The notes beneath the pieces are model-generated. The model saw nothing but the letters and a program-made list of their open reading frames with translations. It was not told where the DNA came from and did no database searches. From an uncultured Erysipelotrichaceae bacterium (GTDB lineage Bacteria; Bacillota_I; Bacilli_A; RFN20; CAG-826): a stretch of DNA of 64,000 nucleotides. Position numbers and translations under genes: made by a program. Below, piece by piece: positions 1,891-22,098 of the stretch (within the stretch, counting starts at the first letter, position 1; the number at the start of each line of letters is the position of its first letter). The stretch spans positions 1,942 through 65,941 of the forward strand of contig CADAIJ010000010.1 in assembly GCA_902787955.1 (NCBI GenBank), read 5' to 3'.

Positions 1891-2261
1891 TTTCCTTTAC
1901 CGTTCTTATAAGGGGGTAGGAGGATTAATCTATGACATCATATATTAATCGTTTTCTTTTGCTAATATTAGCGATTATTTAACAAAAGAACGATAAAGTA
2001 AGGAATCACCTAGATAAAGCTTAGGATCAATATCTAGGATTATCTAGAAAGAAGAGATATAGCCTTTATAGGCCAAATTCATGTGCAAGGATTCTCTACT
2101 TTAGATAACTTAAATATATCTTTAAATATTTAGTGTTTCAATAGGGATTTTTAAGGTAAAAAAGGATCCCTATATTTATTAATAAGTACTACTTCTTATA
2201 TAGATTATAAACTATATAAATATAGGGATTTTTTCTAAAAATTTTTTGTTAGAAAAAAGAA

Positions 2262-2319: not shown

Positions 2320-5300
2320 TTACGCAAAAGTTGTTCCAGTTAAGGTATGTCCACTACTGAAGGTAACTATACTTCCATTCCATCCTGTAACTGTTCCTAA
2401 AAACATTGCTGAGCCATCAGGATTTGTGGTCCAGAATGGAATGTCACCATTAATAACGGTATAAGGAGCAGAAGCAGAAATAATTAAACTATTTGTGCTT
2501 AAATCAGTAACATTATCTACGAAATAGTGAATAGTTTCGAGATTACTGCCATTCTTTCTCCATTTCTCAGTGCTAGTGGTAGAAGAAGTAAATTCACCAT
2601 GATAATAAATAACTAACGAAGTGTCACAACCACTGATAATAGAGTTAGCACCATTCTTAATGTTAAACTTAGATGTAAGTTGTAATTCGGTTAAGCTGGT
2701 GCAATTATTAAATAAACTTTGATTGTGGCTTGGGAATAATGCATCGGTTTTAATGAATCTTACAGAAGCTAAACTTGCACTATTTTGGAAAGCTCCTTCG
2801 CCTAATGTAATTGAGGTTGTTGTCACAATAACTCTTGTAAGTCCACTATTATTAAAAGCGTTTTTGCTAACGTTAATACTCTTATTTGCATTGGCAACAG
2901 GATCTTTAAATGTCATTTCACCGGTTGATGTAATGCTTCCAGTATTTTGGAAAGAACCTTCACCGAAATCACGAAGTTCTGGGAACTTAGAAAAATCAAA
3001 ATTCGCTAGACTTGTACAACCTTTAAATGAAGCAGAGTTAGCTTTTTGAAGACTACAGTCACCACCATTTTGAGTTGTAACATTTACTAAACTTGTGCAG
3101 CCTTCAAACATTGAAGATGAAAAGCTAGTAAGGCCTTCAGGAATAGTAGCATTTACTAAAGAGGTGCAGTTTTGGAAACAATAGTTTCCTGGATTAACAG
3201 TAACTATAGAAGGATCATTATCTGGCCAAATGATAGTTGTTACACCAGTGTTTTTAAATGCACTGACATTTATGTTAATTGTGCCTGTAACATTACTTAA
3301 GTCGATTGTGGTTAAATTAGTGCAGTTTTCAAAAGCATTATCTTTAATTGTAAACGTAGAAACATCAGGAGCAATAAATGTCTGAATAGAAGCATTATTC
3401 TTAAATGACTCTTTACCAACATAAGAATATCCGGTACCTCTTAAGTCAAGAACATGGGCTTCACTACCTCGTGGCGCTGGAGAAGTTTTGTAATTTGTAT
3501 CCGCTAAAGTGACATCTTTAAATACACCATCAGGGATACCGTTACCAGTATCATTGTTTAACTCAACTGTAAGTAAATTCTCACACCCTGCAGTAGCATA
3601 TCTAGGCATTTTAGTAACAAGGCCTGCAATAGTGTCTAGATCACACATTAAGTTAGGATAATAATAACCTTCCGTGCCTAAATATAAATATTTAACAGTT
3701 AACTCATTGCCTTTAGAACCTCTTGTTCCAATTCCAGAGAATAATGGCTGAGCAAAGACATTAGAAGAACTATCAAGAGTAGGATTTCCTAAAACTAATT
3801 CTTTAATCCAATATCCCATCTTATACGCTCCAAAAAGGAATGGATTAGTTCTATATTGACCATTAAATCTAATGCCATTTGTATCATCGGATAAAGCTGC
3901 ATCGAGAGCAGTTTGTTTGAAATCTGCCTTAGTTCTATTTAAAACCATTAAAAGTCTATCTTTGTTATAGGAATAATCAGTTCCATTAGCGTCTTTTGAA
4001 TAAATAGAACCAGTATATGTTGGAGTTCCACTAGTTTTAGAAGTGTAAGTAATCGCCTTATAGTAAGCTGATTCATTTCCTTCGGTCGAATTATCACTTC
4101 CTAAAAATGTGATTTGTCTTAAGGAAACAGCATTAGCAAAAACACAAGCTTCTTTATATGTTTGAGTGTAATTTTCATAGAAAACGCATTCATATGGGAT
4201 TTTAAGAATCTTCTTAAGTCCTGAAAAAGCAAACGCCATTTTGCCTATTTTCTCTAAGCTTGAAGGCATACCTTCTGTAGGAGTATTGTTTCCAGTATAT
4301 GATTTAATAGTGGTAACACCATAAGCTCTCATAAAAGCATAATCGCCAATAGTTTCTATAGCGTTAGGTAGCACGACAGTTGTTAAATCATCAAAAGTAC
4401 CCGGATTTTTCTTTGGACTAGTATCTTGTCCATCACAGAAACACGCTGAGAAAGCATTATTACCAATGTGTTTAACTGTGTATTCTTCCCCATTTCTATC
4501 AGTAACAGTTTCAGGAACTGTGCAAGTTGTTAAATCAGCGGAACCATCATGAAGGTTATATAGATAGTTAGTCATTGTGGCGATATTAGAAGCATTAACA
4601 GTTTCACAAACAAAAGAGCATTTATCTTGTTCAACGTATTCTTTTGTGTTTGAACTACCAAGATTAACAGTGGTTATTACCGTTTCGGCTTCTATAACTT
4701 GTTTATAATAATGAATTTGATCATATATTTCTAATTCTTGGTTAATTCCAAAAGAATTAAGTTCACCATTATTATCTAAAGTGTATGTATCTGTTCTTTT
4801 ATTCGTAAAGCAATAACCAATTCTTGCTGGATTATATTTAGCAGAATAATAGTCTTCTGAGCCAATTGTTTTCCATTCTTTAGCTTGAGAAATTGGAGAA
4901 GCTAAGAAGTCTAAATTTTTCCAGTGACCACATCTACTATCAGAATAGAAATGTGAGCCAGCCTCATCAGGCATTAATCCAGTTAAATAGATTGCTGCTC
5001 TTGAGTTAGCATGGAATGCAAGGTTTTGAATATATAAATCAGTGTATTGATTTGGGAGAACTAAAGTTTGTAAGAATGGCTCGCCACGGAAATCATTACT
5101 ACCAGCACCGGAGTTACTACCAATTGATTCTTGGGCAGAACTTTGGTCCCCTACACCACCATTTGTACCAACTTGGGTATGAAAAACAATCTTATGTCCA
5201 GCCCGTTCTTCAAAAATAATGGTTTGAAGCGATTCGTTAAAAACGAAAGTCTGTAATGGAATAATTAAATCTGTAGTTTCTCCTGAATTCATGCTGCCCT

Positions 5301-7095
5301 TAAATATGACTGTTCCAAATAAAGAACAACCAAGGAAGGCGTGAGCAGGTCTAGTTGCCTTCGTAGAACGTTCAGCAGGAATAACACTAAAATGGAATGG
5401 GTTAGAAGGAAGAGAATTAAATCTAGTTACATCAGTATCAAGCAAACCAAAGTATTTAAATGTTTTAGGGAAAATAATAGTAGAAGCAGTGTGCGGCCTA
5501 TAAGTTTCATTTTTTGCTAAGGTGCCACCTGTAGTACAACCAAGTCCATAAAAAGCATCAGCACCAATACACTCTAAGCGAGAATTAGCATCACTATATC
5601 CCCAACTAAATGTTGTTACATTTGGAAGCGATCTTTTACTCGCTCCAAAAACACCAAAAGCTTCATCACCGATAGCGCGAATCTTGGCAGGAAGACGAAG
5701 AGTGTCTATTCTTTGAGTTGTGACACTTGGTTCATTAAACGCAAATGCTCTAATGCCAATAAACTCTAAATCTGTAATGCCACTTAAATCAATTCGAGCA
5801 GGAATATCATTTAAAGTAGGATATACACTAGTATCGCTATCACCGGCACAAGCCTTATTATCATCAATAACAAAAATGTTTGAGTAATTATATCTAAACA
5901 TTAAATTTTCAATTGAAAGTAATGTTGTTGGTAAATATAGTCTTCTAATTTTACCTTTTGTGGTTGTACTAAAAGCATTAGGGTCGATACGAATAACTTT
6001 ATTGCCTTCAGGAGCCGCCATGGTATCAGGAATAGAAATAAGCCAACCATGTGCTTCATCTGGATCTGGGCCGGTATATTCAGTTAAAGTAACCTCCCCA
6101 TTTTCATTACATTGATAAACCCAATCAGAAGTGAAATAACTATCACCAGTTTCTTGTCGGTAGGCGTAGCAGTTTGTAGGATCGTCAGGATCTCCTAAAT
6201 CATTTTTCCAACCCCACTTTTTATGTTTGTTTACCCAAGTAGTAACAGCGCTTTCCTCTCCGCAGAAACGAATATCTAAGTCAGCGTGACAGTAGTTAAA
6301 AGCGTGAGGTTCTATACCAATATTATTTCCATCATTATCGAATAATGTTTTAGAAACATAGACCTTTCTTAAGCCAATACAGCCTTGGAACGCTCTTTCA
6401 CGAACAATTCTAATACTTTGGAAGAAGATGGTTGATGTTAAAGCAGAGCAACCGTTAAAAGCTTCTTCCCCTACTTCTTGAATAGAACCAGGAAGAGAAA
6501 GTTCTCTAAGGGCAGTACACTTAAAGAAACACATTGTTGGTATTTTTTGCAAAGTTGTAAAGGTAGCGGATTCGCTTTCACCACTATCATCGCAGTTACA
6601 AGTAATCGAACTACCTGTACTAGCAGCGGTACTGTTTTTAAAGTTAGCAACAGCTAAACTTGAACAAGCATAAAAAGCACAATCGCCAATTTGTTGAAGG
6701 GAAACTGGAAGAGTGATACTTGTAATGGAACTATGTAAGAAGGCTTCAAAGTCAATGGTCTTAATACCTTCGTGTAAATTGATAGTTGTAGCAGGAGTAT
6801 TATGGAAAGCATTATGCCAGATTCCAGTAACAGGGATTTCATCATAAGCAGTTGGAACATTAATTGTGCCAGTTAAGGAAGTTTTAACACTATCTTTTAA
6901 AGATACATATAGTTCATTACCACCTTTTTTCTTATAGTAATCATAGTTACCGTTAGTAGCATAAAATGTTCCATCTAATAAATAGTGTGGCTTAATTTTA
7001 GGTGTATCTTCTCCATTAATGTTACATGAAACAGGAACAACAAAAACAAAAGAGAGCACGATTGCTTTAAGAATATTTCTAATTACATTTTTCAT
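2320..7095 (-). CDS. giant cell-surface protein with BspA-type (TpLRR/LRR_5) leucine-rich repeats; likely lipoprotein or signal peptide
   Basis: Many repeats of the IG..AF..C..L..I.IP pattern (IGDCAFYACSSL, VGEEAFNGCSAL, IRERAFQGCIGL, IGNNAFSAC, IGDYAFMRAYGV, IGKMAFAFSGL). Start chosen at ATG 7095 (MKNVIRNILKAIVLSFVFVVPVSC...), preceded by AAGGAG 9 nt upstream; the ORF-track start at 7113 overlaps that SD. Confidence 0.6.
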   Translation of the reverse strand: MKNVIRNILKAIVLSFVFVVPVSCNINGEDTPKIKPHYLLDGTFYATNGNYDYYKKKGGNELYVSLKDSVKTSLTGTINVPTAYDEIPVTGIWHNAFHNTPATTINLHEGIKTIDFEAFLHSSITSITLPVSLQQIGDCAFYACSSLAVANFKNSTAASTGSSITCNCDDSGESESATFTTLQKIPTMCFFKCTALRELSLPGSIQEVGEEAFNGCSALTSTIFFQSIRIVRERAFQGCIGLRKVYVSKTLFDNDGNNIGIEPHAFNYCHADLDIRFCGEESAVTTWVNKHKKWGWKNDLGDPDDPTNCYAYRQETGDSYFTSDWVYQCNENGEVTLTEYTGPDPDEAHGWLISIPDTMAAPEGNKVIRIDPNAFSTTTKGKIRRLYLPTTLLSIENLMFRYNYSNIFVIDDNKACAGDSDTSVYPTLNDIPARIDLSGITDLEFIGIRAFAFNEPSVTTQRIDTLRLPAKIRAIGDEAFGVFGASKRSLPNVTTFSWGYSDANSRLECIGADAFYGLGCTTGGTLAKNETYRPHTASTIIFPKTFKYFGLLDTDVTRFNSLPSNPFHFSVIPAERSTKATRPAHAFLGCSLFGTVIFKGSMNSGETTDLIIPLQTFVFNESLQTIIFEERAGHKIVFHTQVGTNGGVGDQSSAQESIGSNSGAGSNDFRGEPFLQTLVLPNQYTDLYIQNLAFHANSRAAIYLTGLMPDEAGSHFYSDSRCGHWKNLDFLASPISQAKEWKTIGSEDYYSAKYNPARIGYCFTNKRTDTYTLDNNGELNSFGINQELEIYDQIHYYKQVIEAETVITTVNLGSSNTKEYVEQDKCSFVCETVNASNIATMTNYLYNLHDGSADLTTCTVPETVTDRNGEEYTVKHIGNNAFSACFCDGQDTSPKKNPGTFDDLTTVVLPNAIETIGDYAFMRAYGVTTIKSYTGNNTPTEGMPSSLEKIGKMAFAFSGLKKILKIPYECVFYENYTQTYKEACVFANAVSLRQITFLGSDNSTEGNESAYYKAITYTSKTSGTPTYTGSIYSKDANGTDYSYNKDRLLMVLNRTKADFKQTALDAALSDDTNGIRFNGQYRTNPFLFGAYKMGYWIKELVLGNPTLDSSSNVFAQPLFSGIGTRGSKGNELTVKYLYLGTEGYYYPNLMCDLDTIAGLVTKMPRYATAGCENLLTVELNNDTGNGIPDGVFKDVTLADTNYKTSPAPRGSEAHVLDLRGTGYSYVGKESFKNNASIQTFIAPDVSTFTIKDNAFENCTNLTTIDLSNVTGTININVSAFKNTGVTTIIWPDNDPSIVTVNPGNYCFQNCTSLVNATIPEGLTSFSSSMFEGCTSLVNVTTQNGGDCSLQKANSASFKGCTSLANFDFSKFPELRDFGEGSFQNTGSITSTGEMTFKDPVANANKSINVSKNAFNNSGLTRVIVTTTSITLGEGAFQNSASLASVRFIKTDALFPSHNQSLFNNCTSLTELQLTSKFNIKNGANSIISGCDTSLVIYYHGEFTSSTTSTEKWRKNGSNLETIHYFVDNVTDLSTNSLIISASAPYTVINGDIPFWTTNPDGSAMFLGTVTGWNGSIVTFSSGHTLTGTTFA

Positions 7096-7160
7096 TGTTC
7101 TTACTCCTTCCATCTAATCTATCAATATTTAAATATTATTTTTCCTTAATTATTTAATAA

Positions 7161-10100
7161 TTATGGCGTTTCAGGCGCAGGATAAACAATTGGGGTTGTT
7201 GTCACGCCATCACCACTAAATAAGACAACAGTTGTGTTATAAATATCCGTTAAGGCATGGTTAATCGCATAGTTAGATACAGCGACATGTTCCATCGCCC
7301 CTAACGTGTCCGTTGTTATCTTAAATTTATTGTCTAAAGGATCAAAATAGAACCTTATATTACTTGTTGCATCAGTGAATAAAGAACGGTCTCTATTCGC
7401 TAATAAAACATATATTCTCTTACATTCAATATAATTGGTGGCTGGATCATAGCGAGGAGCGTCATCCATAGTAATGTTTGTCGTGGTTACATGAGTTTCT
7501 GGATTATAGGTATAACGTTCCACTCTTGTAAAGTCATAGTTTTTAACTTCATCAGCACTAGCGAAAATGTTAGAGGAGAAGTCAAGTTGACCATCAGTTT
7601 GACCTTGAGCACAAACGTAATAAATTTTAGCCGTGCCTTCTAAACCACCATCGCGATGTGTTCCAGTAGCAGAACCTAAACAATATCGGCCACGTGGAAG
7701 CTTAAAGGTGTGAGCATATAATCTTGTTGTTGGGTGTTCTTTATCATAACCATATTCAGTAACTTGTGAATAAGAAGTACCAACTGCGTCATCAGAAGCA
7801 TAAGTATTTGGAACGGTTGCGTCAGTATGCACATCTGCTTCTGACCAAGTACCATTTTTATCATAAGTTCCAATACGACCTTTACCTAATCCATCTACTA
7901 CATAGTCAAAATAAGCAAGATGATCATCAACTGGCATAAAGAATGCATAATCAGGACTTTCAAATGGCTTTTTGTAGTATTTATTACCGTCAACTGTTCC
8001 AGTTTCAGCGTTATCCAAACGATATACACCTAACGCGGCTGGTTTACTTCTATCCGCTAAACCGGCAACAACAGTAACGTTAGCAAGAGGTGTTTTAATT
8101 TCAAAGTTAACCATGTTAGAAGCAGGATCATCATAAGTAGCGTTTGAAACTGCAATCATTTTTGGTCTTGAAGCTTCAGATGCATTTGATAGATAAGAAT
8201 AATCAGGTGTAGCAAAACTAGATTCTAGTTTTCTAATTTCACGTCCTAAACTATCACGAAGCATAATACCACTTCGTTTACTATTAGCAGATGCTAGAAT
8301 CTTGTAGCCGTTTTGGTCTACAAGTTTATTTTCGAAATATTTAGAAAGGAATGAACCACCAACTGTAGTTTTATCAATATCAGAGAAATAGAACCCTTTA
8401 CCAGCGCGGTAATTATGATCGATTTGGAAACGGAAGAAGTAGTTTTGATAACGATCACGTTCTTCAAAGCTTTCTGATGTCATTTCATCAACACCAGGTA
8501 AATGGTAACCAAGGTGGAATGTACTTGGATTATTTGTATTAAATGAATCGCGGTATTTATCAAAAGTAATTCCTTTAGTGCTATCGTATTCACCAGTTGC
8601 ATAATAAACATAATATTTACTATTAACAGCGGTATTTTCTTTTAAAACAGTGGAAACATTTAAACCGTTAGTAGCGTCATCATACATACCAGTTCCATAA
8701 TAGTCAGTAGCGATTGTAAAAATACCTAAGTCAGTATTCGAAATAACTTTTTGACGGTTAAAGGAGACTGTATTCGCTTGTTGAGTAATATATTTGCCGG
8801 ATGAATTAACTCTTAAGAATCTTTTATATTTTTCCGAAGTTGATGGAACATAAGTTACACCATCTTCAAAAGGGGTAGAACCGCTAAAGGAGGTTGGAGT
8901 AATAACATCATCATAAACAGTTGAAAAGTCAAGAACACCGATGGATTTACCAATATCAGTCGCACCATCAGTTTCGTTAGCGTTAACATTATGAACAGTG
9001 CCACCAATCATACCAATAAGACCGGTATTTGAACCATTCGGCAAGGTGTAATATGTATTACCAGTAACAGCATTACCATTATTCATCTTAAATTCACCAT
9101 TATTGACATAACAGTGATCCAAAGAACCATCGCAGTGGCCAATAACAAAACCAATATTGTTAGTGTGTTCACCACCTAAAATAACATTTAATGTTAATAC
9201 TCCTGAATCAGCTTCAGGTAAAGAAATATCAAAGTCTAAGGAAGCAATAACTTTGGAGTGGTCTAAACCATAGTTATCGGTTGTAGAAGCAATTAAAGAA
9301 ACAGAAGATGAAGCGTTAAGTGGATAATCATCAGCTTCCAAATCAGCCTTTTGTTCTTTAAAGAATTGATAGATAGTTGGTAAATCAAGTCTTACTTCGT
9401 TTTCACCGTTTTCCGTTAGGAAGTCACCTGAAATTAACATTTTATATTTGTAGTTTGAGTTAGTAGATGTAAAGCCAATAACCGGATAATCTTCTGGTAT
9501 TGCAGGAGCGTCACCTTCACCATCCCACGCAAAATAGGCCGAAGCATCAAAATATAATTCTTTTACTTTTTCAGTATCTGATTTAGTAAATGTATCTTCA
9601 TCTTCACCACATTCATAGGTAAAAGCTGTACCTACCGCGGCAACTTGGGAATTGCCATATAAATCAGCGTAACTAGAGGTATAACCAAGCGCGTTAATTG
9701 TGATGTTACTTAAAAATAAATCATGAACAATTGAACCATGCGCTGTATAACCAAATAACCCAGCGTCTTCAGGGTCTGCAAAGACTTCAAGGTTTTTGAT
9801 TTCAAGTCCTTGACCATCAAATTCGCCATAGAATGGAACAGCTTCTGAACCGATTGCGTTAATAGGTTCATAAGTATAGGTGGATGATGTCATATCAAGG
9901 AATGGAACTGTTTCTGAAGTTGAGTCATTTAAATAACAAAGTGGTTTCCCGCTATCATCACCAGCTAAGCCAACTAAACCCAATTGGAAGAAAGTAGGTT
10001 CGTTAAAGACACCTAAACCTTGTAAACGAGAAAGGTTATACATGTGTCTTGGTCGAGTAATAACGTATGGATCCCCTGGATCATCAATGCCATTTGTGCC

Positions 10101-10304
10101 TTTTGGTCTACCTGTTCCACGTTCAAAGTATGAACGGAGAGCAACTTGACCATAAAAACCTTCACGTTCCGCGTCTTTTTCAAAAATAGCAATCGCAAAA
10201 GGTGCTACTAAAGCAAGTAAAGAAGTAGCAATTGAAGCGACGAAAGTGATTATAAAAGCTTTTGATTTAAGTAATTCAGTTTTTCTTTTATTCATTTTCG
10301 TCAC
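7161..10304 (-). CDS. large secreted or surface protein, hypothetical (N-terminal signal anchor with an A-x-A-x-F motif)
   Basis: 1047 aa. Basic n-region, long hydrophobic segment ...LVAPFAIAIFEKD. No recognisable enzymatic motifs. Translationally coupled to the upstream gene by a 17-nt overlap. Confidence 0.5.
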   Translation of the reverse strand: MTKMNKRKTELLKSKAFIITFVASIATSLLALVAPFAIAIFEKDAEREGFYGQVALRSYFERGTGRPKGTNGIDDPGDPYVITRPRHMYNLSRLQGLGVFNEPTFFQLGLVGLAGDDSGKPLCYLNDSTSETVPFLDMTSSTYTYEPINAIGSEAVPFYGEFDGQGLEIKNLEVFADPEDAGLFGYTAHGSIVHDLFLSNITINALGYTSSYADLYGNSQVAAVGTAFTYECGEDEDTFTKSDTEKVKELYFDASAYFAWDGEGDAPAIPEDYPVIGFTSTNSNYKYKMLISGDFLTENGENEVRLDLPTIYQFFKEQKADLEADDYPLNASSSVSLIASTTDNYGLDHSKVIASLDFDISLPEADSGVLTLNVILGGEHTNNIGFVIGHCDGSLDHCYVNNGEFKMNNGNAVTGNTYYTLPNGSNTGLIGMIGGTVHNVNANETDGATDIGKSIGVLDFSTVYDDVITPTSFSGSTPFEDGVTYVPSTSEKYKRFLRVNSSGKYITQQANTVSFNRQKVISNTDLGIFTIATDYYGTGMYDDATNGLNVSTVLKENTAVNSKYYVYYATGEYDSTKGITFDKYRDSFNTNNPSTFHLGYHLPGVDEMTSESFEERDRYQNYFFRFQIDHNYRAGKGFYFSDIDKTTVGGSFLSKYFENKLVDQNGYKILASANSKRSGIMLRDSLGREIRKLESSFATPDYSYLSNASEASRPKMIAVSNATYDDPASNMVNFEIKTPLANVTVVAGLADRSKPAALGVYRLDNAETGTVDGNKYYKKPFESPDYAFFMPVDDHLAYFDYVVDGLGKGRIGTYDKNGTWSEADVHTDATVPNTYASDDAVGTSYSQVTEYGYDKEHPTTRLYAHTFKLPRGRYCLGSATGTHRDGGLEGTAKIYYVCAQGQTDGQLDFSSNIFASADEVKNYDFTRVERYTYNPETHVTTTNITMDDAPRYDPATNYIECKRIYVLLANRDRSLFTDATSNIRFYFDPLDNKFKITTDTLGAMEHVAVSNYAINHALTDIYNTTVVLFSGDGVTTTPIVYPAPETP

Positions 10305-11832
10305 CTCCTTCTTTATAGATTGGAGATGGAGATGGTTCTAATCTTTGAGTTGCGGTAAAGTAGAAACCAAAATCACGGTCAAGATAATATGTTTTGCCTA
10401 AACGTTCTTGGTTAACGAAGAAATTTGTATAAGCGTAATCATAATCAATAGCGATATAGATATGGTATGTGCTTTCTTCAAGTGAACCAGGAATAATTGT
10501 AGAGTCTGACATTGTTTTACCTTTGACATTCATTTGGATTTCACGGTCAAAGGTAGTGTTATTTTGATATTTTTGATAGATATATTGAGCGTCTTCTTGT
10601 TGGTCAGTTTTTAAAGCATGGAAAGCTTCCCAAGCGAAAGTAGGCGATGCATATTTATTCTCTTCCTTAGCAATTACGGAATAGAAAGTATAGAAATCAC
10701 TAGCGTTTAATGGATTACGATGTTCATCATCTTGATAGCCACGATATGTATAAGCATCAGTTGTGTTATATTTTCCAGTAAAGCTATAAATAGATTGAGC
10801 AGAAACTCCTTCACGCATAATTTTTAAACCCGCATCAATATCGATTTTGTTTTGATATTTAACTTCAACATCTAAAACCACCATTGTGTTTTGTTCTTGG
10901 ATAGCGGTTGAAAGATAATCGGTAATTTCTGGGTATTCTTCTTTATCAACAGAACCGCGATAATCAATTGAAATCTTGGTTGGATCGATGAGGTTTGAAC
11001 CGATAATTGCGTTATCACCTCTAGCGGTTAAATTGATATCTAAGAACTTATCTCCAGAAGAATTGATGCGATATCTTATGGTATAAATGCCGCTTTCTAA
11101 ACATTTGATACGATTATTATCTATAATAGCAAAACGAGAATTCTTACTTGTTTCTGGAACTGGTGTCCCATAAGTAAAGTAAGAGCAAGTTGTGTTTAAA
11201 TTATTAACAGTTCTAACATCGAAAAGGATAAATTCAGAACCTTGTGATAAAACGACATTTTTAACAATCGCGGTTTGATCATCAGTTGGATCATCAGTCG
11301 CTACAGGAATATCACGTCTAGAAAATGCGGTAGCGGTTAATGTTGACCAAGGATTATTAGTAACTCCATTAAAAGTACTATTTCCGATGAGATAATATTT
11401 AAAGTCTTGCGATCTTTCAAAACTAATATTTGTTGAGGTTTTTTCTCCACCACCGTTACATGTTTGCCCTTCAAGTACAGTGAGAGGAATGGTAACTGTA
11501 TCGCTTAAGTTTTCAGGAATTTCAATTGAAGAATCCTTAACAACATAACTTTTAACAACACCGTCTCCTTCATAATCAATAAAGTCAGCGGAGTTATTGT
11601 AATATGGGTAAACATATTTATAGGCTGAGACTTTGTTAATGTTGATATCTAAGTCTCCAGAGAATGTGTTGATTGATGATTTTGTATTAGCGTTTGCCAC
11701 AAACCAGGCAAAAGTAATGGAGGATAAAGCGAAAAGATTTCCAATCGTTAGAGCGGCCAAAGCAGCAATCACTCTATTTTTCTTGGAACTAAGTAACTTT
11801 TCTTTTAGTAACTTAATCTTACTTTCCTTCAT
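10288..11832 (-). CDS. SipW-cognate secreted protein, TasA/camelysin-like
   Basis: N-terminus KKNRVIAALAALTIGNLFALSSITFAWFVANAN resembles the TasA GGGTWAAFND / camelysin GGGTFAYFSD class. C-terminus FGFYFTATQ matches the TasA C-terminal ..LQFSFEATQW strand. Confidence 0.55.
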   Translation of the reverse strand: MKESKIKLLKEKLLSSKKNRVIAALAALTIGNLFALSSITFAWFVANANTKSSINTFSGDLDININKVSAYKYVYPYYNNSADFIDYEGDGVVKSYVVKDSSIEIPENLSDTVTIPLTVLEGQTCNGGGEKTSTNISFERSQDFKYYLIGNSTFNGVTNNPWSTLTATAFSRRDIPVATDDPTDDQTAIVKNVVLSQGSEFILFDVRTVNNLNTTCSYFTYGTPVPETSKNSRFAIIDNNRIKCLESGIYTIRYRINSSGDKFLDINLTARGDNAIIGSNLIDPTKISIDYRGSVDKEEYPEITDYLSTAIQEQNTMVVLDVEVKYQNKIDIDAGLKIMREGVSAQSIYSFTGKYNTTDAYTYRGYQDDEHRNPLNASDFYTFYSVIAKEENKYASPTFAWEAFHALKTDQQEDAQYIYQKYQNNTTFDREIQMNVKGKTMSDSTIIPGSLEESTYHIYIAIDYDYAYTNFFVNQERLGKTYYLDRDFGFYFTATQRLEPSPSPIYKEGGDENE

Positions 11833-11837: not shown

Positions 11838-12716
11838 TTACGCTAATTCGAAATCTAATTTATCGAAGAATAACCTTTCGTAACAGTTGCTATTTCCGTA
11901 ATCATCTTGTGTATAGTAGCCAGTTTCCTCATCATAGCTATAGTGAGTGCTCACATCGTTAGAGAATTCTAAAGTGAAATAGATAATTACACGGTGACCG
12001 CTTTCCTTTTCTGGCATATCACCGCTTTCGATAATATCAATCACAGGTTTTGAAGAAGTTGGAGCAAGCGATTCTTCGGAATATTCAAATACATCTTCTA
12101 AAGTATCGTCGGCATAATATGTTCTAAAACCAGTTGCAACATCATTAGCGATTGCTTCGTTAGTATCTCCGGTGCTTGTCACACTGTAGGCGGCACCATA
12201 AATATCAATAGCCCAAGATAATCTAACAAATTGACTAACGCTTGTTTTAGCGGCGTCATCCGCTTCATGTCCTTCATTTTCACCCCAATCAGAAATGGAG
12301 AATTTTTCAACTTCACTAGATGTAATAACAACAGCAAATGTTAATTTATGAGCAGGCCATAAATGAGTAATATTAGTTGGGTTTGGATCATTTATAACAT
12401 GACCATCAGAATAATTTATTTTAGTAAATGTGGCGTCTTCGTAAGCAACTTCATAACCAGAGAAGCTTTCAATAGTAGGATTATAATTGCCTAATTTAGT
12501 ATTTCCTTCTCCATCATCAAATTCGCTTAAATAATAAAGGTCAAAGCCAATAGCTTCTGGGCCAACAACAGTAAAATTACCGGCGGTCGTATTAAACATA
12601 TTTAATGACTCAAACCAGGCAAAAGTCGCACTAAAAGTGGTCGCTAGTGTGAAAATAGTGATTAATGTAGCGATTGCAATCCTAACTTTAGGTTTTTTGA
12701 AGAAGTCACTTGCCAT
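11838..12716 (-). CDS. SipW-cognate secreted protein, TasA/camelysin-like
   Basis: Start at ATG 12716 (MASDFFKKPKVRIAIATLITIFTLATTFSATFAWFESLN). The longer ORF-track N-terminus is just translated riboswitch sequence. C-terminal IIYFTLEFSN motif. Confidence 0.55.
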   Translation of the reverse strand: MASDFFKKPKVRIAIATLITIFTLATTFSATFAWFESLNMFNTTAGNFTVVGPEAIGFDLYYLSEFDDGEGNTKLGNYNPTIESFSGYEVAYEDATFTKINYSDGHVINDPNPTNITHLWPAHKLTFAVVITSSEVEKFSISDWGENEGHEADDAAKTSVSQFVRLSWAIDIYGAAYSVTSTGDTNEAIANDVATGFRTYYADDTLEDVFEYSEESLAPTSSKPVIDIIESGDMPEKESGHRVIIYFTLEFSNDVSTHYSYDEETGYYTQDDYGNSNCYERLFFDKLDFELA

Positions 12717-12744
12717 TAAATAAAAATCCCAGTCACCTATAGTT

Positions 12745-12812
12745 GGCAACTGGCTGTCTTCTCTTATAAAGACCCTATAGCTTTGCGTCACCACATTACT
12801 GTGGTTTTGCTT
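12745..12812 (-). promoter_or_regulatory. c-di-GMP-I (GEMM) riboswitch aptamer
   Basis: Minus-strand RNA: GCAAAACC-ACAGUAAUGUGG-UGACGCAAAGCUAUAGGGUCUUUAUAAGAGAAGACAGCCAGUUGCC. Aligns element by element with the riboswitch at 186-262. Confidence 0.8.
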
Positions 12813-12819
12813 TTGTCTA

Positions 12820-12853
12820 TTTTTAGTTTTACTACTACAAAAAAAGAGTGTCA
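12820..12853 (-). promoter_or_regulatory. promoter TTGACA-N16-TAAAAC for the riboswitch-2 operon
   Basis: Perfect -35 TTGACA (rc of 12848-12853), weak -10. The transcript would begin a few nt upstream of the aptamer. Confidence 0.4.
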
Positions 12854-12878
12854 ATATTTTTTTATTTATATAAAAATC

Positions 12879-15796: not shown

Positions 15797-18700
15797 CTAT
15801 TTGTTTTGTCTAAGGGCTTCGATAAATGTTGATTTATCAAGTGGCTTATAGAAGTGATAACCTTGTAAGGCGATATCTTTAGAAATATCTCTAAGTAAGG
15901 CGTATTGATCACTATTTTCAACACCAACGAGGGCGACTTTAACACCGCGAGATAAGGCGACATCAGCGAGGTCTTTAATGGTTTGATATTTATTCTTATC
16001 TGTATCGATACCATTAACGAGATAACGGCCAATCTTAATCTCACTAAAGCCAAGTTCTTTTAAGACATCAACAGAGAGGAATGAACCACTGTATTGGTCA
16101 CAAATAAGAGCAATTCTTTGATGCAAGGATTTAGATAGTTTCTTAAATTCGTCTAAGTGGTCAAAGACTTCTTTTTCCGTAATTTCAAAACCCAGGAATT
16201 CTTTTGGGAAGTGATAGGTATTAATTAAGGAATAGATTGTTTCAAAGAAGTTTGGATCAGAGAAATAAGAGAAGTCGGTGTTAATAGTTAAACGATGGAA
16301 ACCATAAACCTTAAACGCGGTTAAACCAAATTGTTGATATAAATTACCAATATATTCAATTAAGGCGTTAGAAATAAGGGAGATCTTACCATTTTCCGCG
16401 GCAACCTTAACAAGTTCATCAGCGTTAAAGACAATCTTTCGATAATCATCAGCGATACGTAAGAGTAACTCAGCACCAAAGATGGCTTTGGTTCCTGCTT
16501 TAACCATTGGTTGAAGTAAGACAGAGAAGGTCTTATTACCAAATTGATCATCGATAACAGAGAGCATAAATCTCTTACGAGAGGCACTTCTAGAGTAATC
16601 ACTATCAGCGAAGTAGATGAAGTCTTTATTAGAAGCGTAGTTACCGCTATCTTTGAATTTCCAAGCAAACTTAATAAATTCTTCCGCTGTAGAGTAGCCC
16701 ATTGGATATGGGATTGGTAAATAAGTGATATTAAAGCTATTATGAGTTTCGTTATAGATATAATCTTCTTTAGAAGCTTCATAAATAGATTCAATAATAT
16801 TAACGACGTTAGCTTGACCAACTTCAGGAAGTAGGATAGCCACTGTATAGTTAGAGAAATGGAAGATATTATCTCTTCTAATGCCTTTCTCTTTAAGTCT
16901 TTGTAAGAAGCCTCTTTCTAAGAAGAGAGCGCCTTCGCTACCATATTTAGTTATTAATTCTTCTAAGTTATCAATATTAAGAAGTAATAAATATCCATGG
17001 GAGTTAACTTTATAGTAGTTACCCATTGAAATAACTAATGAAAGATAAGAGTTAATAAGTAAGTCACGGTCAAAACGATCTTCCACCGCTTCATTATTTT
17101 CAAGTAAACGAATGAACATTCTTCTTAAATAAGTGTTCTTAACGTTAACGGATAGAGATGTTTCGATACGTGAACCACTTTCGATTTCACTAACTTTCTT
17201 CTTTTCAGTTAGAATTGGACAATCTTTACATGGTGCATCTAAACCATATAAAACTTTGTAGCACTTCTCGCCCCACTTAATATTTGGGAATAAAGTAGGC
17301 ATATGTTGAGAGAAAGATGTTAGTTCATAAGATTCTGGGTTAACTCTATATAACGCGGTATTAGACGCTTGCAAGGTGGAGTTAATCTCTAAGAATGTTT
17401 CACTAAAGGTCATCTCTCTTTGGATATTTAAGATATATTCGCCTAAACGAGAAGTAACAACATATAAAGCTTCTCTAATATATGAATTGATACGGAGTTC
17501 ACGGCCATTTTCATTAAAGAAATAACACATACCCATGAGTTTTCCGCGGTCTAAAATCATATTATAGAAGCCACTTGTGATATTAATTTTGTCTAAGATT
17601 CTCGCTAAAGAAGGGTTAGTGTGCTTTCTTGTGGAGAAATAATATGAACCATCTTCTTCACGAACTTCACTAAAGACTTTTAGAATTTCATATTCAACGA
17701 TTTTGCCACGGTCAAAGTAGGTATTATTACCGTTTTCAACATGGATTATAGAATCATAACCTCTATGTCTATTTGAAATCGAAACAATACCAGCGCAGTC
17801 GATATTTAAGTGTTTAGCGAGTAATTTAAAGGTTGTTTCAATCTTCTCTAAGTTACTTTCATGATCCGCGACACTTAATGGCAAATCATGAAGACATTTT
17901 AAAATCTTAGTCATGACATTAAGTGACATTGAAGATTGAAGTATCTTTGAATTAGCGGTGTCAGAAAGACGATTTGGAATATAGAAGTTAATGACTTTAC
18001 CTTGACGTTTTGCGTATCGAAGGTCACTAAAGATTTCATTAACATCACTATATGGATAAGCGACTAAAGAGAATCTAGCGGGAATAGTAACTAAGCCATC
18101 ATATGTTTTCTTTGAGATGGATAAAGTTTTCATTAATGTGAAGAGTTGTTCATGAAGACAAGAAAGGGTATCAAAGTTTGGTAAATAAACATATATTCCC
18201 TTCTTTTCATCATCATTAATGATATAAAGGACATTTTCATATTCCTTAAATAAACTGATTGCATAAGAAATAACACGGTTAGTTTCTTCCTTAGTTAAGG
18301 TATCATGATCCATTTGATAATAGATTTCGATAACCGCGTTTCTAAAAGCCTGCGCAGAATTAATGATCGGAACTAAGTTTTCTTTAAATGATTCTAAGGA
18401 AACAATGTTTCTTTCTTTATCTAAGAAATCTAGTGGGATATTTTTATAACCATTAGAGAAATTAAGGAATTCAGTATCGTGAAGTTGAACTTTTAATTCA
18501 TCAATCGCTTTATTTAGTTCATCTACTTCATTAATTGATACAAAGTTAGAAGTGTATTTTTCAAGACTTTTAGAGGAATTAGTTAAGTTCTTATAGTTTT
18601 CTTTAGTGACGGAATAGATTCCACGATAGAAAACTTCAAGAGCGATTTTCACTCCAAAATAGACTGTTAAGCCGAACAAAACAAATAAAACCGAAATAAC

Positions 18701-18883
18701 ACTAATTAAGACAACTAATAGAATAGTGTTTGGTTCTTTTAAGTAGAAGAAAGTAAGTGGAACCCCTACTGCAAAGATAGTAATTAAAACGACAAAAGGA
18801 ATAGCTACCCCGAGGACCGCGGCAACTTTAAGAGATATTGGCTTCTTAAAAAGAAGGTTATTATGTTCTTGCTTATTAGACAT
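15797..18883 (-). CDS. membrane protein with degenerate GGDEF and degenerate EAL domains; candidate c-di-GMP receptor/scaffold
   Basis: Start at ATG 18883 (MSNKQ...) with AAGGAGGAG SD. 2-3 N-terminal TM helices. GGDEF-like region with the active site replaced (..HFSNYTVAILLPE). C-terminal EAL fold with LLQPMV, AELLLR, CDQYSGSF (in place of DDFGTGYSS), KIGRYL, VGVE. Confidence 0.6.
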   Translation of the reverse strand: MSNKQEHNNLLFKKPISLKVAAVLGVAIPFVVLITIFAVGVPLTFFYLKEPNTILLVVLISVISVLFVLFGLTVYFGVKIALEVFYRGIYSVTKENYKNLTNSSKSLEKYTSNFVSINEVDELNKAIDELKVQLHDTEFLNFSNGYKNIPLDFLDKERNIVSLESFKENLVPIINSAQAFRNAVIEIYYQMDHDTLTKEETNRVISYAISLFKEYENVLYIINDDEKKGIYVYLPNFDTLSCLHEQLFTLMKTLSISKKTYDGLVTIPARFSLVAYPYSDVNEIFSDLRYAKRQGKVINFYIPNRLSDTANSKILQSSMSLNVMTKILKCLHDLPLSVADHESNLEKIETTFKLLAKHLNIDCAGIVSISNRHRGYDSIIHVENGNNTYFDRGKIVEYEILKVFSEVREEDGSYYFSTRKHTNPSLARILDKINITSGFYNMILDRGKLMGMCYFFNENGRELRINSYIREALYVVTSRLGEYILNIQREMTFSETFLEINSTLQASNTALYRVNPESYELTSFSQHMPTLFPNIKWGEKCYKVLYGLDAPCKDCPILTEKKKVSEIESGSRIETSLSVNVKNTYLRRMFIRLLENNEAVEDRFDRDLLINSYLSLVISMGNYYKVNSHGYLLLLNIDNLEELITKYGSEGALFLERGFLQRLKEKGIRRDNIFHFSNYTVAILLPEVGQANVVNIIESIYEASKEDYIYNETHNSFNITYLPIPYPMGYSTAEEFIKFAWKFKDSGNYASNKDFIYFADSDYSRSASRKRFMLSVIDDQFGNKTFSVLLQPMVKAGTKAIFGAELLLRIADDYRKIVFNADELVKVAAENGKISLISNALIEYIGNLYQQFGLTAFKVYGFHRLTINTDFSYFSDPNFFETIYSLINTYHFPKEFLGFEITEKEVFDHLDEFKKLSKSLHQRIALICDQYSGSFLSVDVLKELGFSEIKIGRYLVNGIDTDKNKYQTIKDLADVALSRGVKVALVGVENSDQYALLRDISKDIALQGYHFYKPLDKSTFIEALRQNK

Positions 18884-19622
18884 TTTCTCCTCCTTTAATA
18901 ACGTCATTATGAGAAATCTCACCAATGCAGGTAACAATAGCTTTACCTACAGAGGAGAACTCTTGTAAGACTTTAATATAACTATCTGTGGTTGCTGGAG
19001 TGTTTAACACTCTTTCAACAACCTTAACTGTAACAAATGGAACTTTATTGATATAGGCTGAGATACAAACCCCAACAGAAGTACAGTCAAAAACTAAATT
19101 GTTTTTATGACCAAACATATATCCACCCGTTTCAATGTTAGCAATTTTATTAGATGTATCGATAATTGTGTTAGAAGATATAAAACTAGCGATTTTATAT
19201 TTAGAGAATGATCTTTTTTCAATAGAAGATGCGACTAATTTCATAATTTCTTCTTCTGATTTAAAGTTAGGTGGAAAGCCAGGAAGTTGACCTAAACGGA
19301 CATTAGCCTCTCTTATTTGGTCAACGTCTCCAGCGATAACTCGTTTTGATATGGCTATTTCACCAGGTTTAAAGTCATCGTTAAAAGCGACACATTTACC
19401 TACCACAAAGATTAAAAGAACGAAGTATTTCTCAATTAAATAGTTTGTAAGCATCGCAGAGATATAAGAAGTATAAACATCATAAACAAGTAAGACTTCT
19501 TGGTTAAAAATCTTACCAATTTGAACTTTATAGTTATTCATTACTACTTCTTCTCGACGGTCAGTCATGACACTTTCGAAATATAAAACGTCATCATGAA
19601 CGCTACCAAGAATCATAATCAT
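18876..19622 (-). CDS. PNP/UDP phosphorylase-superfamily protein (MTA/SAH nucleosidase-like)
   Basis: MIMILGSVHDDV...VGKCVAFNDDFKPGEIAI...ETGGYMFGH resembles MtnN (MKIGIIGAMEEEV...TGSAGGL..GDVVI...ATGDSF). Divergent; assignment tentative. Confidence 0.4.
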   Translation of the reverse strand: MIMILGSVHDDVLYFESVMTDRREEVVMNNYKVQIGKIFNQEVLLVYDVYTSYISAMLTNYLIEKYFVLLIFVVGKCVAFNDDFKPGEIAISKRVIAGDVDQIREANVRLGQLPGFPPNFKSEEEIMKLVASSIEKRSFSKYKIASFISSNTIIDTSNKIANIETGGYMFGHKNNLVFDCTSVGVCISAYINKVPFVTVKVVERVLNTPATTDSYIKVLQEFSSVGKAIVTCIGEISHNDVIKGGENV

Positions 19623-19624: not shown

Positions 19625-21166
19625 TTAACGTTTACCCTCCTTTCTTTCAAATGGATTAGAAATAAGGAATTTCTCGTATTCTGCTTTTGGAATTGGACGA
19701 GAATAATAGAAACCTTGAATTGTATCGCATTTCGCTTTCTTTAAGACTTCAACTTGATCTTTATTATCAACACCTTCAGCGATAACTTCGAGTTCGTTAG
19801 CTTGGCAAAGTTCGATTAAGAATTTAACAATCGCACTAGCTTTCTTATCGGATTCAATGTTATCAATAAAGGATTTATCAATTTTAACCGCATCAAATGG
19901 CATCTTTCTTAAGTTACCAATGTTGGAGAAACCGACACCGAAGTCATCCATTAAAACACGAATGCCATGGTCTCTAAGTTTACGAATAACAGAACTTGCC
20001 ATAAAGGTATTAGTTTGAGAAGTTGATTCGGTAATTTCAATTTCAATTAAGGATGGGTTGATATCGTGTTTTTCAATCGTGGAGATAACTGAATCAAGGA
20101 AGTTCATCGAGTAGAATTCATGTAAAGAGAAGTTAATTGATACAGGAAGCACTCTTCTACCTTTTCTTTTAGCTTCATTTAAATCTTCACAAACACGGTT
20201 AAACACATAAGTATCAATGCTATGGATTAAACCAGCGTTTTCAGCGATAAAAATGAATTTAGAAGGTTCTAATAAACCGTGTGTTGGAGAATTCCATCTA
20301 ACAAGAGCTTCACTAGAAACAAATCTTTTCGCGGTTAAAGAGAATTTAGGCTGATAATAAACAACAAATTCATTGTTGGTTAAGGCTTTAGTAATTTCAT
20401 CAATTTCGGATTTAGAGGAATGCTTACGGAAAGATTCATGATAGAAAGTTAAAGATTCGAAGTTTCTTTCACTAACATCACGAGCGATAGAAGCATTTTC
20501 AATATCCTCGATTAATGGAGATTCATAGTTAACTTCGGTAACACCAAAGAATGGTTGAACCCAGACATGTAAATCTTCATCCTCGGCGATTCTAAATAAA
20601 TCATTAGAAATAGCGTTAACTAGGTTTTTAATATGGTCATCTTCATCAGAAACAGTGTACACATAGAATAAACCCTTGTTATACGCGAAGGCACTATCAC
20701 GATGGAGTAAACCTTTATCTTTATCAAAATAAGAAGTTAAGAAGTCCGCTATTTTGGCAGAGAAACTAATAATAGATTCATCGTGAGAAGTGTTCTCCAT
20801 GACTGATTGGTTCGCCGCGGAGAAGATAGTAATATATTGTTTTTTCTTACGGTTTAAGAACGATTTTTTAAGAAGAGACACTCTAACTTCAAAAGACGCT
20901 AAGTTAAAGAATGTTGTCTTTTTACCTAAGGCGTATAAGTTTTCATTTTCAAGGTTAATCTTCTTTTGAGTTTCTTGAGTAAATCTCATGAAGAAGAACA
21001 TTGCTGCGGAAATAACAGCAGGAACAAGAATAATTAATAAAATAGCAATAGCAGGATGTTCCTTAAGCATGCCATTAAGTTCAAAAATGAATGAAAGAAC
21101 AAAGCCAGCAAGGAAAATGGTGCCTGTTGTTATAAATAATGCAAGATATCTTCTACGTAGGTTCAT
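19625..21166 (-). CDS. membrane-anchored c-di-GMP phosphodiesterase (2 TM + degenerate GGDEF-like + EAL)
   Basis: EAL domain with YYQP, EALVRW, DDFGVGFSN, KIDKSF, EGVD and QGFYYSRP motifs all intact. Start overlaps the stop of the upstream SipW gene. Confidence 0.75.
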   Translation of the reverse strand: MNLRRRYLALFITTGTIFLAGFVLSFIFELNGMLKEHPAIAILLIILVPAVISAAMFFFMRFTQETQKKINLENENLYALGKKTTFFNLASFEVRVSLLKKSFLNRKKKQYITIFSAANQSVMENTSHDESIISFSAKIADFLTSYFDKDKGLLHRDSAFAYNKGLFYVYTVSDEDDHIKNLVNAISNDLFRIAEDEDLHVWVQPFFGVTEVNYESPLIEDIENASIARDVSERNFESLTFYHESFRKHSSKSEIDEITKALTNNEFVVYYQPKFSLTAKRFVSSEALVRWNSPTHGLLEPSKFIFIAENAGLIHSIDTYVFNRVCEDLNEAKRKGRRVLPVSINFSLHEFYSMNFLDSVISTIEKHDINPSLIEIEITESTSQTNTFMASSVIRKLRDHGIRVLMDDFGVGFSNIGNLRKMPFDAVKIDKSFIDNIESDKKASAIVKFLIELCQANELEVIAEGVDNKDQVEVLKKAKCDTIQGFYYSRPIPKAEYEKFLISNPFERKEGKR

Positions 21167-22098
21167 TATTTGCCGCCTTTCTTTTTCATCATTTCATCTA
21201 ATAATTCTTGTTTGAGTTTCTTTTTCTCTTCTTCACTGAAGCCATCTAATGAACTTGAATCAGATCCTCCTGGCTTTTTATCGCCTTTTGGATTATCTCC
21301 TCCACTAGCGCCTTCTTCAGGTTCTTTAACCGCCTTAAATATATCTAAGACAGAAGTGACAATAAGATATGAAGCTGGAATTAAGAGTAAAACAATTAAA
21401 CCCCAAGGAGTTGTAATGAAATACAAAAGTCCACCTAAAACAGGACTATTTAATATTACCACACCAAAGAGTTCTTTTTCGGTGAAAGTTTGATATTGAC
21501 CGAATTGGGATTTATAGCCTTCTTTATTAGTGCCAGAGGTAAAGAAGATATATCTTCCTTCGCCAAGAGGCTTAGATTCATCAATTTGAATTTCTCTTAA
21601 ACGGTGGGTCATTGGATAATTAGTTGGTGAAGTTGGATCACTTGGACCAATTTCCTTATCCCATTTAGTAATTCCGCCAGTAGTAGGAACATATGGGTAT
21701 CTTTGGTTATCGAAGAAAGTCAAATCAATAGTTTCTTCTTTTAAATACATTTGATAGATAGTTTCACAATCGTGTTTATGAGTAACAATTGCGGTATTTA
21801 CACCATATTCAGGAAGCATGGAATCAGTTTCAATAAGGAATGTTGAATAACCAAAGGCAACATTGCGGCCATAGTTTTCACCGCGATGAATCATTCCATC
21901 AATAACAAAAACACCAGCAAACACAAATACTGCGGCAAAGAAACCAGTAATAACCCATTCGATTATACGACGGGCTTTCGATTTTGGTTTCTTCTCTTTT
22001 TTATCAGTAGAGTCTTGAGGTTTAGCTTCATTATTAGCTTCACTTTCAGTAGCAGGTTTTTCTTCTACTGGAGTTTCTGTTTTCTTTTCTTCATCCAT
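21166..22098 (-). CDS. sipW: SipW-type (archaeal/ER-type, family S26B) signal peptidase I with long charged N- and C-terminal extensions
   Basis: TM helix; Ser box ..LIETDSMLPE (cf. SipW VLSGSMEP); His box MTHRLREIQI...FFTSGTNKEG (cf. SipW VTHRIVDIT...FKTKGDNN); C-terminal TM LGGLLYFITTPWGLIVLLLIP. ~50-aa acidic/K-rich N-tail and ~60-aa G/S/D/K-rich C-tail, which the ~190-aa B. subtilis SipW lacks. Confidence 0.7.
   Translation of the reverse strand: MDEEKKTETPVEEKPATESEANNEAKPQDSTDKKEKKPKSKARRIIEWVITGFFAAVFVFAGVFVIDGMIHRGENYGRNVAFGYSTFLIETDSMLPEYGVNTAIVTHKHDCETIYQMYLKEETIDLTFFDNQRYPYVPTTGGITKWDKEIGPSDPTSPTNYPMTHRLREIQIDESKPLGEGRYIFFTSGTNKEGYKSQFGQYQTFTEKELFGVVILNSPVLGGLLYFITTPWGLIVLLLIPASYLIVTSVLDIFKAVKEPEEGASGGDNPKGDKKPGGSDSSSLDGFSEEEKKKLKQELLDEMMKKKGGK

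Follow-up and report, generated by a model that had tools for sequence, protein, structure and literature searches.

Introduction

The class I riboswitches for cyclic di-GMP (c-di-GMP), known as c-di-GMP-I or GEMM-I (Rfam family RF01051) and with Vc2 of Vibrio cholerae as the prototype, have a two-hairpin aptamer with a GNRA tetraloop, GACGCAAAG and AGCC...GCC elements and the residues A47 and C92 (Vc2 numbering), and lie in the 5′ untranslated region. Vc1 and Bc2 are ON-type members of GEMM-I, and in Bacillus thuringiensis Bc2 sits upstream of a collagen adhesion protein gene as a c-di-GMP ON riboswitch. All of the above Vc2 features recur in the element described here, which is located on the minus strand of a 64,000-nt stretch of DNA (referred to as the window) from an uncultured Erysipelotrichaceae bacterium (GenBank contig CADAIJ010000010.1, positions 1,942 to 65,941). 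This element (riboswitch #2 of the three GEMM-I elements in the window) stands directly upstream of a four-gene cassette, A-B-C-D, and is best explained as a c-di-GMP-responsive transcriptional ON switch of that operon, a reading that we consider highly probable.

Several described systems resemble parts of this locus. The GEMM-Ib riboswitch of pilM in Geobacter metallireducens is likewise a transcriptional ON switch with mutually exclusive aptamer and terminator folds and an A at the position equivalent to Vc2 G20, and its terminator sequesters the ligand-pairing cytosine, which is the same design as in the window leader (PMC9262584). However, pilM is selective for cyclic GMP-AMP (cGAMP) and works together with Hypr GGDEF enzymes, whereas the window encodes canonical cyclases and the orthologous leaders alternate between A and G at this position. 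In Clostridioides difficile, class II c-di-GMP ON switches of CD2831, CD3246 and a pilin operon induce surface adhesion proteins through antitermination (PMC11477304), although these concern class II aptamers and sortase-anchored proteins, rather than a class I aptamer and an unannotated four-gene cassette with a BspA-type leucine-rich repeat (LRR) lipoprotein. Finally, the dual-terminator Bc1 riboswitch of the B. cereus group (PMC11218506) and tandem riboswitches (PMC9481103, PMC4759541) line up serial platforms, as do orthologous leaders of the cassette but not the window leader itself. The latter has one terminator, while 21 orthologues carry a second copy of the aptamer 3′ strand alone and true tandems carry a complete second aptamer.

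Compared with these systems, neither the RNA nor its mechanism goes beyond what is usual for its class, the terminator competing with the aptamer 3′ strand in the classic way. The novelty lies in the regulon, i.e., a conserved and unannotated surface-protein cassette of uncultured Bacilli, and in the A20 variant of the aptamer. The coordinates of all features are collected in Table 1.

Aptamer and promoter

A first-pass annotation, made from the letters of the DNA without database searches, had placed a GEMM aptamer on the minus strand at 12745-12853 and proposed an RF01051 scan as a check. The Rfam covariance model indeed matched 12821..12742 with 66.0 bits (gathering score 35, E = 1e-10), in a full-length alignment (model positions 1-87) that is the top-scoring of the three GEMM-I matches in the window. 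The matched minus-strand sequence, AAUAGACAAAAGCAAAACCACAGUAAUGUGGUGACGCAAAGCUAUAGGGUCUUUAUAAGAGAAGACAGCCAGUUGCCAAC, contains every motif that the annotation had listed, i.e., GCAAAACC, a GUAA-capped hairpin ACCACA/UGUGGU, UGACGCAAAGC and GCCAGUUGCC, and the covariance alignment assigns ACCACA-GUAA-UGUGGU, GACGCAAAGC and GACAGCCAGUUGCC to the corresponding model elements. The GEMM-I architecture of two adjacent hairpins (the first being GNRA-capped), a GACGCAAAG junction and an AGCC...GCC 3′ strand is thus complete, and when Vc2 positions are mapped via the GC pair closing the first hairpin and PMC6140456, the A47- and C92-equivalents are conserved at equivalent model positions. The element departs from Vc2 in its A at the G20-equivalent, in a short outer helix of 4 bp and in its second helix, which has no classical 11-nt tetraloop receptor, the alignment showing deletions at those model positions.

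The same aptamer precedes the orthologue of gene A in 37 of the approximately 40 loci that extend far enough upstream (16/19 genome loci, 20/20 further loci scanned, plus L045). Together with the E-value, this places the aptamer well beyond chance, and the 12821..12742 region can be regarded, from its sequence, as a genuine c-di-GMP-I riboswitch aptamer. The A-B-C-D gene order is kept in every locus that is long enough, at identities of protein A from 97% down to 27%, and all labelled relatives are metagenome-assembled genomes (MAGs) from rumen or gut that are called Bacilli, Bacillales or Erysipelotrichaceae bacterium. Among the approximately 40 loci scanned, no recognizable GEMM-I aptamer was found in L016 or in the near-identical pair L017/L046 (Ca. 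Enterosoma). L016 (1-675; one Bacilli MAG) and L017 (5670-6001)/L046 carry the most divergent cassettes, and the L017 leader resembles a decayed aptamer (AAAGGCAUGCC...AUGCAAGAAGAUAGGCC...GAUAGCCGGCAGAC).

A TTGACA hexamer, located approximately 33–35 nt 5′ of the aptamer and followed by an A-rich –10 element, is kept at equal distance in most orthologous leaders (e.g., TTGACA-17-TATAAC in L020 and TTGACA-17-TAAAAC in L021). In L003 and L026, a simple promoter scanner picked up the corresponding promoter, but it missed that of the window because the –10 hexamer there ends in C. Transcription would start approximately 7 nt beyond the –10 element, near 12819-12821, which would put the aptamer at the extreme 5′ end of the mRNA. 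As such, the 12745-12853 interval of the first-pass annotation does cover the –35 element and the aptamer, but falls short of the last three aptamer bases (12744-12742), the terminator 3′ arm (12737-12729) and the U-tract (to 12717).

Terminator and switching logic

Immediately downstream, the hairpin CCAGUUGCC/GGUGACUGG is followed by AUUUUUAUUUA and then by the AUG of gene A. The terminator scanner calls this site at 12753..12729 (CCAGTTGCC-AACTATA-GGTGACTGG, then GATTTTTATT), and it is the sole strong terminator-like site on the minus strand from 15.2 kb to the operon end at 2.3 kb. It has the makeup of an intrinsic terminator, with a G+C-containing 9-bp stem, a 7-nt loop and a GAUUUUUAUUUA tail, and it overlaps the aptamer at 12753-12745. 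The ACUGG segment that the first-pass annotation had named as an alternative partner of the aptamer 3′ strand is indeed present upstream of AUUUUUAUUU and the AUG. Since the aptamer and the terminator require the same nine bases, the two folds are mutually exclusive.

In the ligand-free minimum free energy (MFE) structure, the first hairpin is kept and the terminator is formed, with energies of –30.6 kcal/mol (112-nt leader) and –32.5 kcal/mol (126-nt construct). If the Rfam aptamer pairs are imposed, the energy is –20.3 kcal/mol, and the terminator hairpin by itself amounts to –13.3 kcal/mol. By these folding energies, the ligand would need to contribute about 10 kcal/mol, or else exert a kinetic effect while the RNA is being transcribed. 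The terminator is conserved in L020, L021 and L001, and equivalent hairpins capture the 5′ arm in nearly all of the 36 orthologous leaders, with 3′ arms that vary by G-C/G-U and U-A/U-G changes. Riboswitch #3 of the window has the same device (CCAGUUGCC...GGCAACUGG, then UUUUUAUUU), which agrees at the sequence level with the earlier proposal that both elements share one ON logic.

In the proposed mechanism, the sigma-70-type promoter (TTGACA-17-TAAAAC, 12854-12826) would begin a transcript of which the first ~80 nt fold as the GEMM-I aptamer. With c-di-GMP in place, the second helix of the aptamer, along with the ligand-pairing cytosine, would hold CCAGUUGCC (12753-12745). When no ligand is present, CCAGUUGCC would instead pair with GGUGACUGG (12737-12729) into an intrinsic terminator that, with the U-tract, stops transcription before the AUG at 12716. 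Because the folds exclude each other and the ligand-free MFE structure contains the terminator, ligand binding should permit read-through, and at high c-di-GMP levels RNA polymerase would proceed into A, B, C and D. This ON logic of the leader is well supported by its sequence.

The opposite direction, i.e., an OFF switch, or a decayed and non-functional aptamer, would find precedent in the class I c-di-GMP riboswitches of C. difficile, which are mostly OFF switches (PMC11477304), and in at least one class I riboswitch, Bc1, that lacks in vivo regulation (PMC11218506). However, the 3′ strand of the aptamer doubles as the 5′ arm of the terminator, which makes ligand binding and termination mutually exclusive, and no anti-antiterminator is present. 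Moreover, the aptamer scores high, and aptamer, promoter and capture hairpin are strictly conserved over approximately 40 loci. This possibility, already disfavoured by the sequence, is therefore considered very improbable.

More room is left for a hairpin that acts chiefly on translation, or on both levels, in which case c-di-GMP would also free ribosome access. The GGUGACUGG arm holds the only Shine-Dalgarno (SD)-like sequence near the AUG (AGGUGA/GGGA), which would be sequestered in ligand-free full-length transcripts, and the U-tract abuts the AUG, leaving no space for a separate SD. In addition, second platforms of some orthologues clearly sequester the SD or AUG (UUACCU/AGGUAA in L005-L008; UUGCCUA/UAGGCAA-UG in L009/L012/L033). 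On the other hand, the distance from AGGUGA to AUG is 16-17 nt, too long for a normal SD, about half of the window genes have no recognizable SD, and the stem with its U-tract is that of a textbook intrinsic terminator. A translational role is therefore possible but doubtful, and because of the patchy SD usage and the distance of AGGUGA from the AUG, no added translational effect is claimed for the window leader.

Some observations nevertheless weigh against a c-di-GMP-responsive transcriptional ON switch. The outer closing helix of the aptamer is just 4 bp (AUAG/CUAU), the U-tract of the terminator is interrupted (UUUUUAUUU), and the AUG of gene A has no clear SD, though this also holds for about half of the window genes. 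Furthermore, A12811 stands at the G20-equivalent, and G20A variants bind both c-di-GMP and 3′3′-cGAMP (PMC6140456; PMC9481103). Proteins A, B and C belong to uncharacterized families, and ligand binding, transcription start and termination are each predicted.

Ligand specificity

The G20-equivalent A12811 (model position 11) lies directly 5′ of the GC pair closing the first hairpin. In Vc2, G20 reads the first guanine of c-di-GMP, and Vc2 carrying the G20A change binds both c-di-GMP and 3′3′-cGAMP, with A-variants still binding c-di-GMP by means of an adenine that is protonated (PMC6140456). The natural A-variants extend from cGAMP selectivity in Geobacter to bispecificity in Clostridium beijerinckii Cbe 1-2 (PMC6140456; PMC9481103), and a review of tandem riboswitches takes G versus A at position 20 as an indicator of c-di-GMP versus c-AMP-GMP (PMC9481103). 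The window aptamer thus lacks the G that marks c-di-GMP-selective members and discriminates against cGAMP, and has the A of GEMM-Ib. Because of this A12811, the element is filed as GEMM-I with c-di-GMP as a probable but possibly not exclusive ligand.

Taken further, A12811 could mean a bispecific or 3′3′-cGAMP-preferring (GEMM-Ib-like) sensor with the same ON antitermination, in which cGAMP or both dinucleotides are the signal. Such a sensor would fit the position of A12811, where the first ligand base is read, as well as the dual binding of Vc2 G20A and the reported bispecificity of Cbe 1-2. Against it, 21 of the 36 orthologous A-B-C-D leaders carry A at the G20-equivalent and the other 15 carry G, which argues that one ligand serves both. 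Even the near-identical leaders L005 and L006 differ in this residue (A and G, respectively), as do the window (A) and the 69%-identical L020 (G). Hypr GGDEF cGAMP synthases carry Ser at the specificity position (PMC6456294), whereas both GGDEF enzymes of the window carry Asp (motifs NDDYGHDSGD and NDTLGHDAGD). No CD-NTase/DncV-like Pfam match occurred among the window open reading frames (ORFs) scanned, and A-variants, as mentioned, retain c-di-GMP binding. A cGAMP-preferring or bispecific sensor in this physiological sense is therefore quite improbable. Since the orthologous leaders alternate between A and G and both local cyclases are canonical, c-di-GMP remains the likely signal and most likely the physiological ligand of the ON switch, while the aptamer could plausibly bind both ligands in vitro.

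Among the three riboswitches of the window, the G20-equivalent is A in #2 (12811, minus strand) and #3 (29661, minus strand), and G in #1 (~190, plus strand).

The four-gene cassette

As the first-pass annotation had stated, the riboswitch stands directly 5′ of a four-gene operon, of which the gene order is conserved and in which the scanner found no terminator-like site on the minus strand between 12729 and 2320. Co-transcription of the four genes is predicted. At the operon end, only a weak terminator candidate was seen (2075..2060). The annotated gene sizes were right within one residue (292, 514, 1047 and 1597 aa). Public calls of gene A orthologues (301-303 aa) begin at a TTG within the aptamer 3′ strand (12749 in the window, giving 303 aa), but based on the N-terminal alignment of the A family this is probably an over-extension, with the ATG at 12716 as the likely real start. 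Public calls also begin gene C at ATG 10295 (1044 aa) and not at GTG 10304. The window has a G+C content of 33.8% and contains ordinary bacterial housekeeping genes.

Protein A is laid out as a basic stretch, a transmembrane (TM) helix, a T-F-A-W-F motif and a beta-sandwich domain (pLDDT 85 in the predicted model), and none of its 117 homologues is annotated. Protein C is the best-conserved product of the cassette. No Pfam domains were found in A, B or C, and their families comprise hundreds of unannotated metagenomic homologues. Protein D, in contrast to these, matches Pfam PF13306 LRR_5 (3.1e-60, 202 bits versus a gathering score of 27.7, over six stretches), confirming its earlier assignment as a BspA-type LRR protein. 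Because all four products are predicted to be membrane-anchored or secreted, the switch would tie the c-di-GMP "sessile" signal to the making of a surface or adhesion apparatus.

The first-pass annotation had also described A and B as TasA-like, SipW-cognate proteins, and the operons behind riboswitches #2 and #3 as one paralog family. Neither description held. Proteins A and B gave no Pfam match at E ≤ 0.01 (i.e., no PF12389 Peptidase_M73, the TasA/camelysin family) and no NCBIfam match at E ≤ 0.1 (i.e., no SipW-type signal peptide, TIGR04088). A profile of the A family aligned to Bacillus subtilis TasA (a query confirmed as PF12389 at 129 bits) with an HHalign probability of 1%, and only in the signal-peptide region (T.AWF versus TWAAF). 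In Foldseek, the protein A model had no significant match, TasA being listed at a probability of ~0.3. No SipW/S26/S24 peptidase was found among the scanned window ORFs (all but a few small or overlapping ones, e.g., 50310-51335 and 61563-62603). At the sequence level, A and B are therefore not recognizable as TasA/camelysin members, and what they share with TasA there is a likeness of signal motif (TFAWF versus TWAAF) that is real and provides a lead.

The two proteins were also rejected as paralogs of each other, since A and B align (HHalign 94.7%) over residues 6-40 only, so that their common part comes down to the ~35 N-terminal residues with the basic stretch, TM helix and T-F-A-W-F. Likewise, one family for the mature proteins of operons #2 and #3 was rejected, as BLASTP returned nil and HHalign reached at most 31%, over the N-terminal motif only. 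The riboswitch-#3 operon proteins share with A and B just a looser motif (VAWY, ISWF or VAWF).

The A12811 variant and these N-terminal motifs could be joined in a single picture, in which a natural bispecific c-di-GMP/3′3′-cGAMP sensor switches on an unrecognized surface-filament system of uncultured rumen/gut Bacilli. Proteins A and B would then be strand-complemented fibre subunits with a TasA-like T-x-A-W-F processing signal, degenerate in the #3-operon proteins, that display C (beta-helix/CBM-like) and D (BspA-LRR) as adhesins. This joint picture is unlikely, and the c-di-GMP ON switch of a surface-protein operon remains the preferred explanation of the locus.

Table 1. Positions of the predicted features in the window, and of example two-copy leaders in orthologous loci.
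Feature	Position	Strand	Basis or remark
c-di-GMP-I (GEMM-I) aptamer	12742..12821	-	Rfam RF01051, 66 bits
Aptamer first hairpin, GUAA tetraloop	12810-12785	-	RF01051 alignment
Aptamer second helix	5′ strand 12782-12771, 3′ strand 12758-12748	-	RF01051 alignment
Ligand-contact equivalents	A12811 (Vc2 G20), A12784 (A47), C12746 (C92)	-	RF01051 alignment
Promoter –35 hexamer TTGACA	12849..12854	-	Read from sequence
Promoter –10 hexamer TAAAAC, 17-nt spacer from –35	12826..12831	-	Read from sequence
Terminator hairpin, 9 pairs, loop AACUAUA	12729..12753	-	Terminator scanner, folding energies
Terminator 5′ arm CCAGUUGCC	12753-12745	-	Equals second-helix 3′ strand plus C92-equivalent cytosine
Terminator 3′ arm GGUGACUGG	12737-12729	-	Complementary to CCAGUUGCC
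U-rich tract GAUUUUUAUUUA	12717..12728	-	Directly 3′ of hairpin, abuts start codon AUG at 12716
Gene A, 292 aa, first gene after leader	11838..12716	-	TM helix, T-F-A-W-F, beta-sandwich domain
Gene B, 514 aa, 5-nt gap after A	10288..11832	-	TM and T-F-A-W-F N-terminus
Gene C, 1047 aa, 17-nt overlap with B	7161..10304	-	N-terminal TM anchor, beta-helix and carbohydrate-binding module (CBM)-like modules
Gene D, 1597 aa, 47-nt gap after C	2320..7113	-	Lipoprotein-type signal (…VPVSC), BspA-type LRR
Riboswitch #1, RF01051, 59 bits, G at G20-equivalent	180-260	+	Rfam
Riboswitch #3, GEMM-I	29671-29596	-	Rfam
Canonical GGDEF diguanylate cyclase, headed by riboswitch #1	339-1814	+	
Second canonical GGDEF protein	58270-59481	-	
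1046-aa degenerate-GGDEF + EAL protein	15797-18937	-	
513-aa EAL protein, in riboswitch-#3 operon	19625-21166	-	
Example two-copy leaders	L009:996-1191, L003:5802-6001, L005:5835-6001		21-sequence alignment

Leaders with two copies of the aptamer 3′ strand

In 21 of the 36 orthologous leaders, the aptamer 3′ strand is present twice. Copy 1, GAUAGCCAG[C/U]AACCUCAA (also given as GAUAGCCAGCAACCUCAA), gives a second helix without its two basal pairs and leads into a strong terminator, T1 (AACCUCAA...UUGAGGUU, then U4-5), which is called by the scanner in L003 and L026. Copy 2, GA[C/U]AGCCAGUU[G/A]CC, is the canonical form (GACAGCCAGUUGCC) and constitutes the 5′ arm of a second platform, which depending on the clade is a terminator or a hairpin that sequesters the SD or AUG. 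Rfam aligns copy 2 in L009, L012 and L033 (64-65 bits, with T1 as an insertion) and copy 1 elsewhere (42-57 bits).

An alignment of the 21 sequences is compatible with both folds, the copy-1 fold being paired in 96.7% of cells and the copy-2 second-helix pairs in 100%. T1 is paired in 96.5% of cells and shows two compensatory pairs, and one pair of the copy-2 outer helix covaries. A candidate "helper" stem (AAGAUA/UAUCUU) was rejected as weak, pairing in 67.5% of cells. From their sequences, these leaders look like one aptamer core that is re-used with two alternative 3′ strands and would gate two successive checkpoints. A review of tandem riboswitch architectures has no category for such leaders (PMC9481103). 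The nearest case, Bc1, differs in having two terminators without a second 3′ strand, its T2 being ligand-blind (PMC11218506). The window leader is the simple single-platform form, and its terminator and AUUUUUAUUU(A/C)AAUG match the second platform of the two-copy leaders.

In some relatives a second riboswitch is found ~4.7 kb upstream (L003:1142-1216, L014:613-687, L039:161-238), in front of a smaller cassette with a protein that has an A-like N-terminus and a C-like protein. For the second riboswitch of L003, and likewise for the L039 main leader, the variant model RF03167 (c-di-GMP-I-GGC) scores best, slightly above its gathering score.

The c-di-GMP network of the window

Besides riboswitch #2, the window holds two canonical GGDEF proteins, two EAL proteins and two further GEMM-I aptamers, mostly within its first 30 kb. 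These surroundings, which make up a large part of a c-di-GMP network, count in favour of a c-di-GMP-responsive switch. A terminator-like hairpin (CAGTATT...AATACTG, then T8) lies between riboswitch #1 and the ATG of the cyclase gene behind it. Riboswitch #1 is thus predicted to be a c-di-GMP riboswitch over a c-di-GMP synthase gene, i.e., a feedback loop. The operon behind riboswitch #3 (19625-29490, minus strand) encodes three proteins (323, 367 and 383 aa) in which VAWY, ISWF or VAWF comes after an N-terminal TM helix, next to a membrane AAA-type ATPase (23808-25325) and several proteins without a Pfam match, and may serve to assemble or secrete proteins with such N-terminal signals.

Biological meaning

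By placing the four-gene cassette under c-di-GMP control, the predicted switch gives a first clue to what these proteins do in uncultured rumen/gut Bacilli, namely adhesion or biofilm formation. The three GEMM-I aptamers and the GGDEF/EAL genes of the window outline a compact c-di-GMP regulon that would include a riboswitch before a diguanylate cyclase gene. The set of orthologous leaders, finally, is a natural experiment on G20 versus A20, and contains an undescribed two-3′-strand design that merits separate study.
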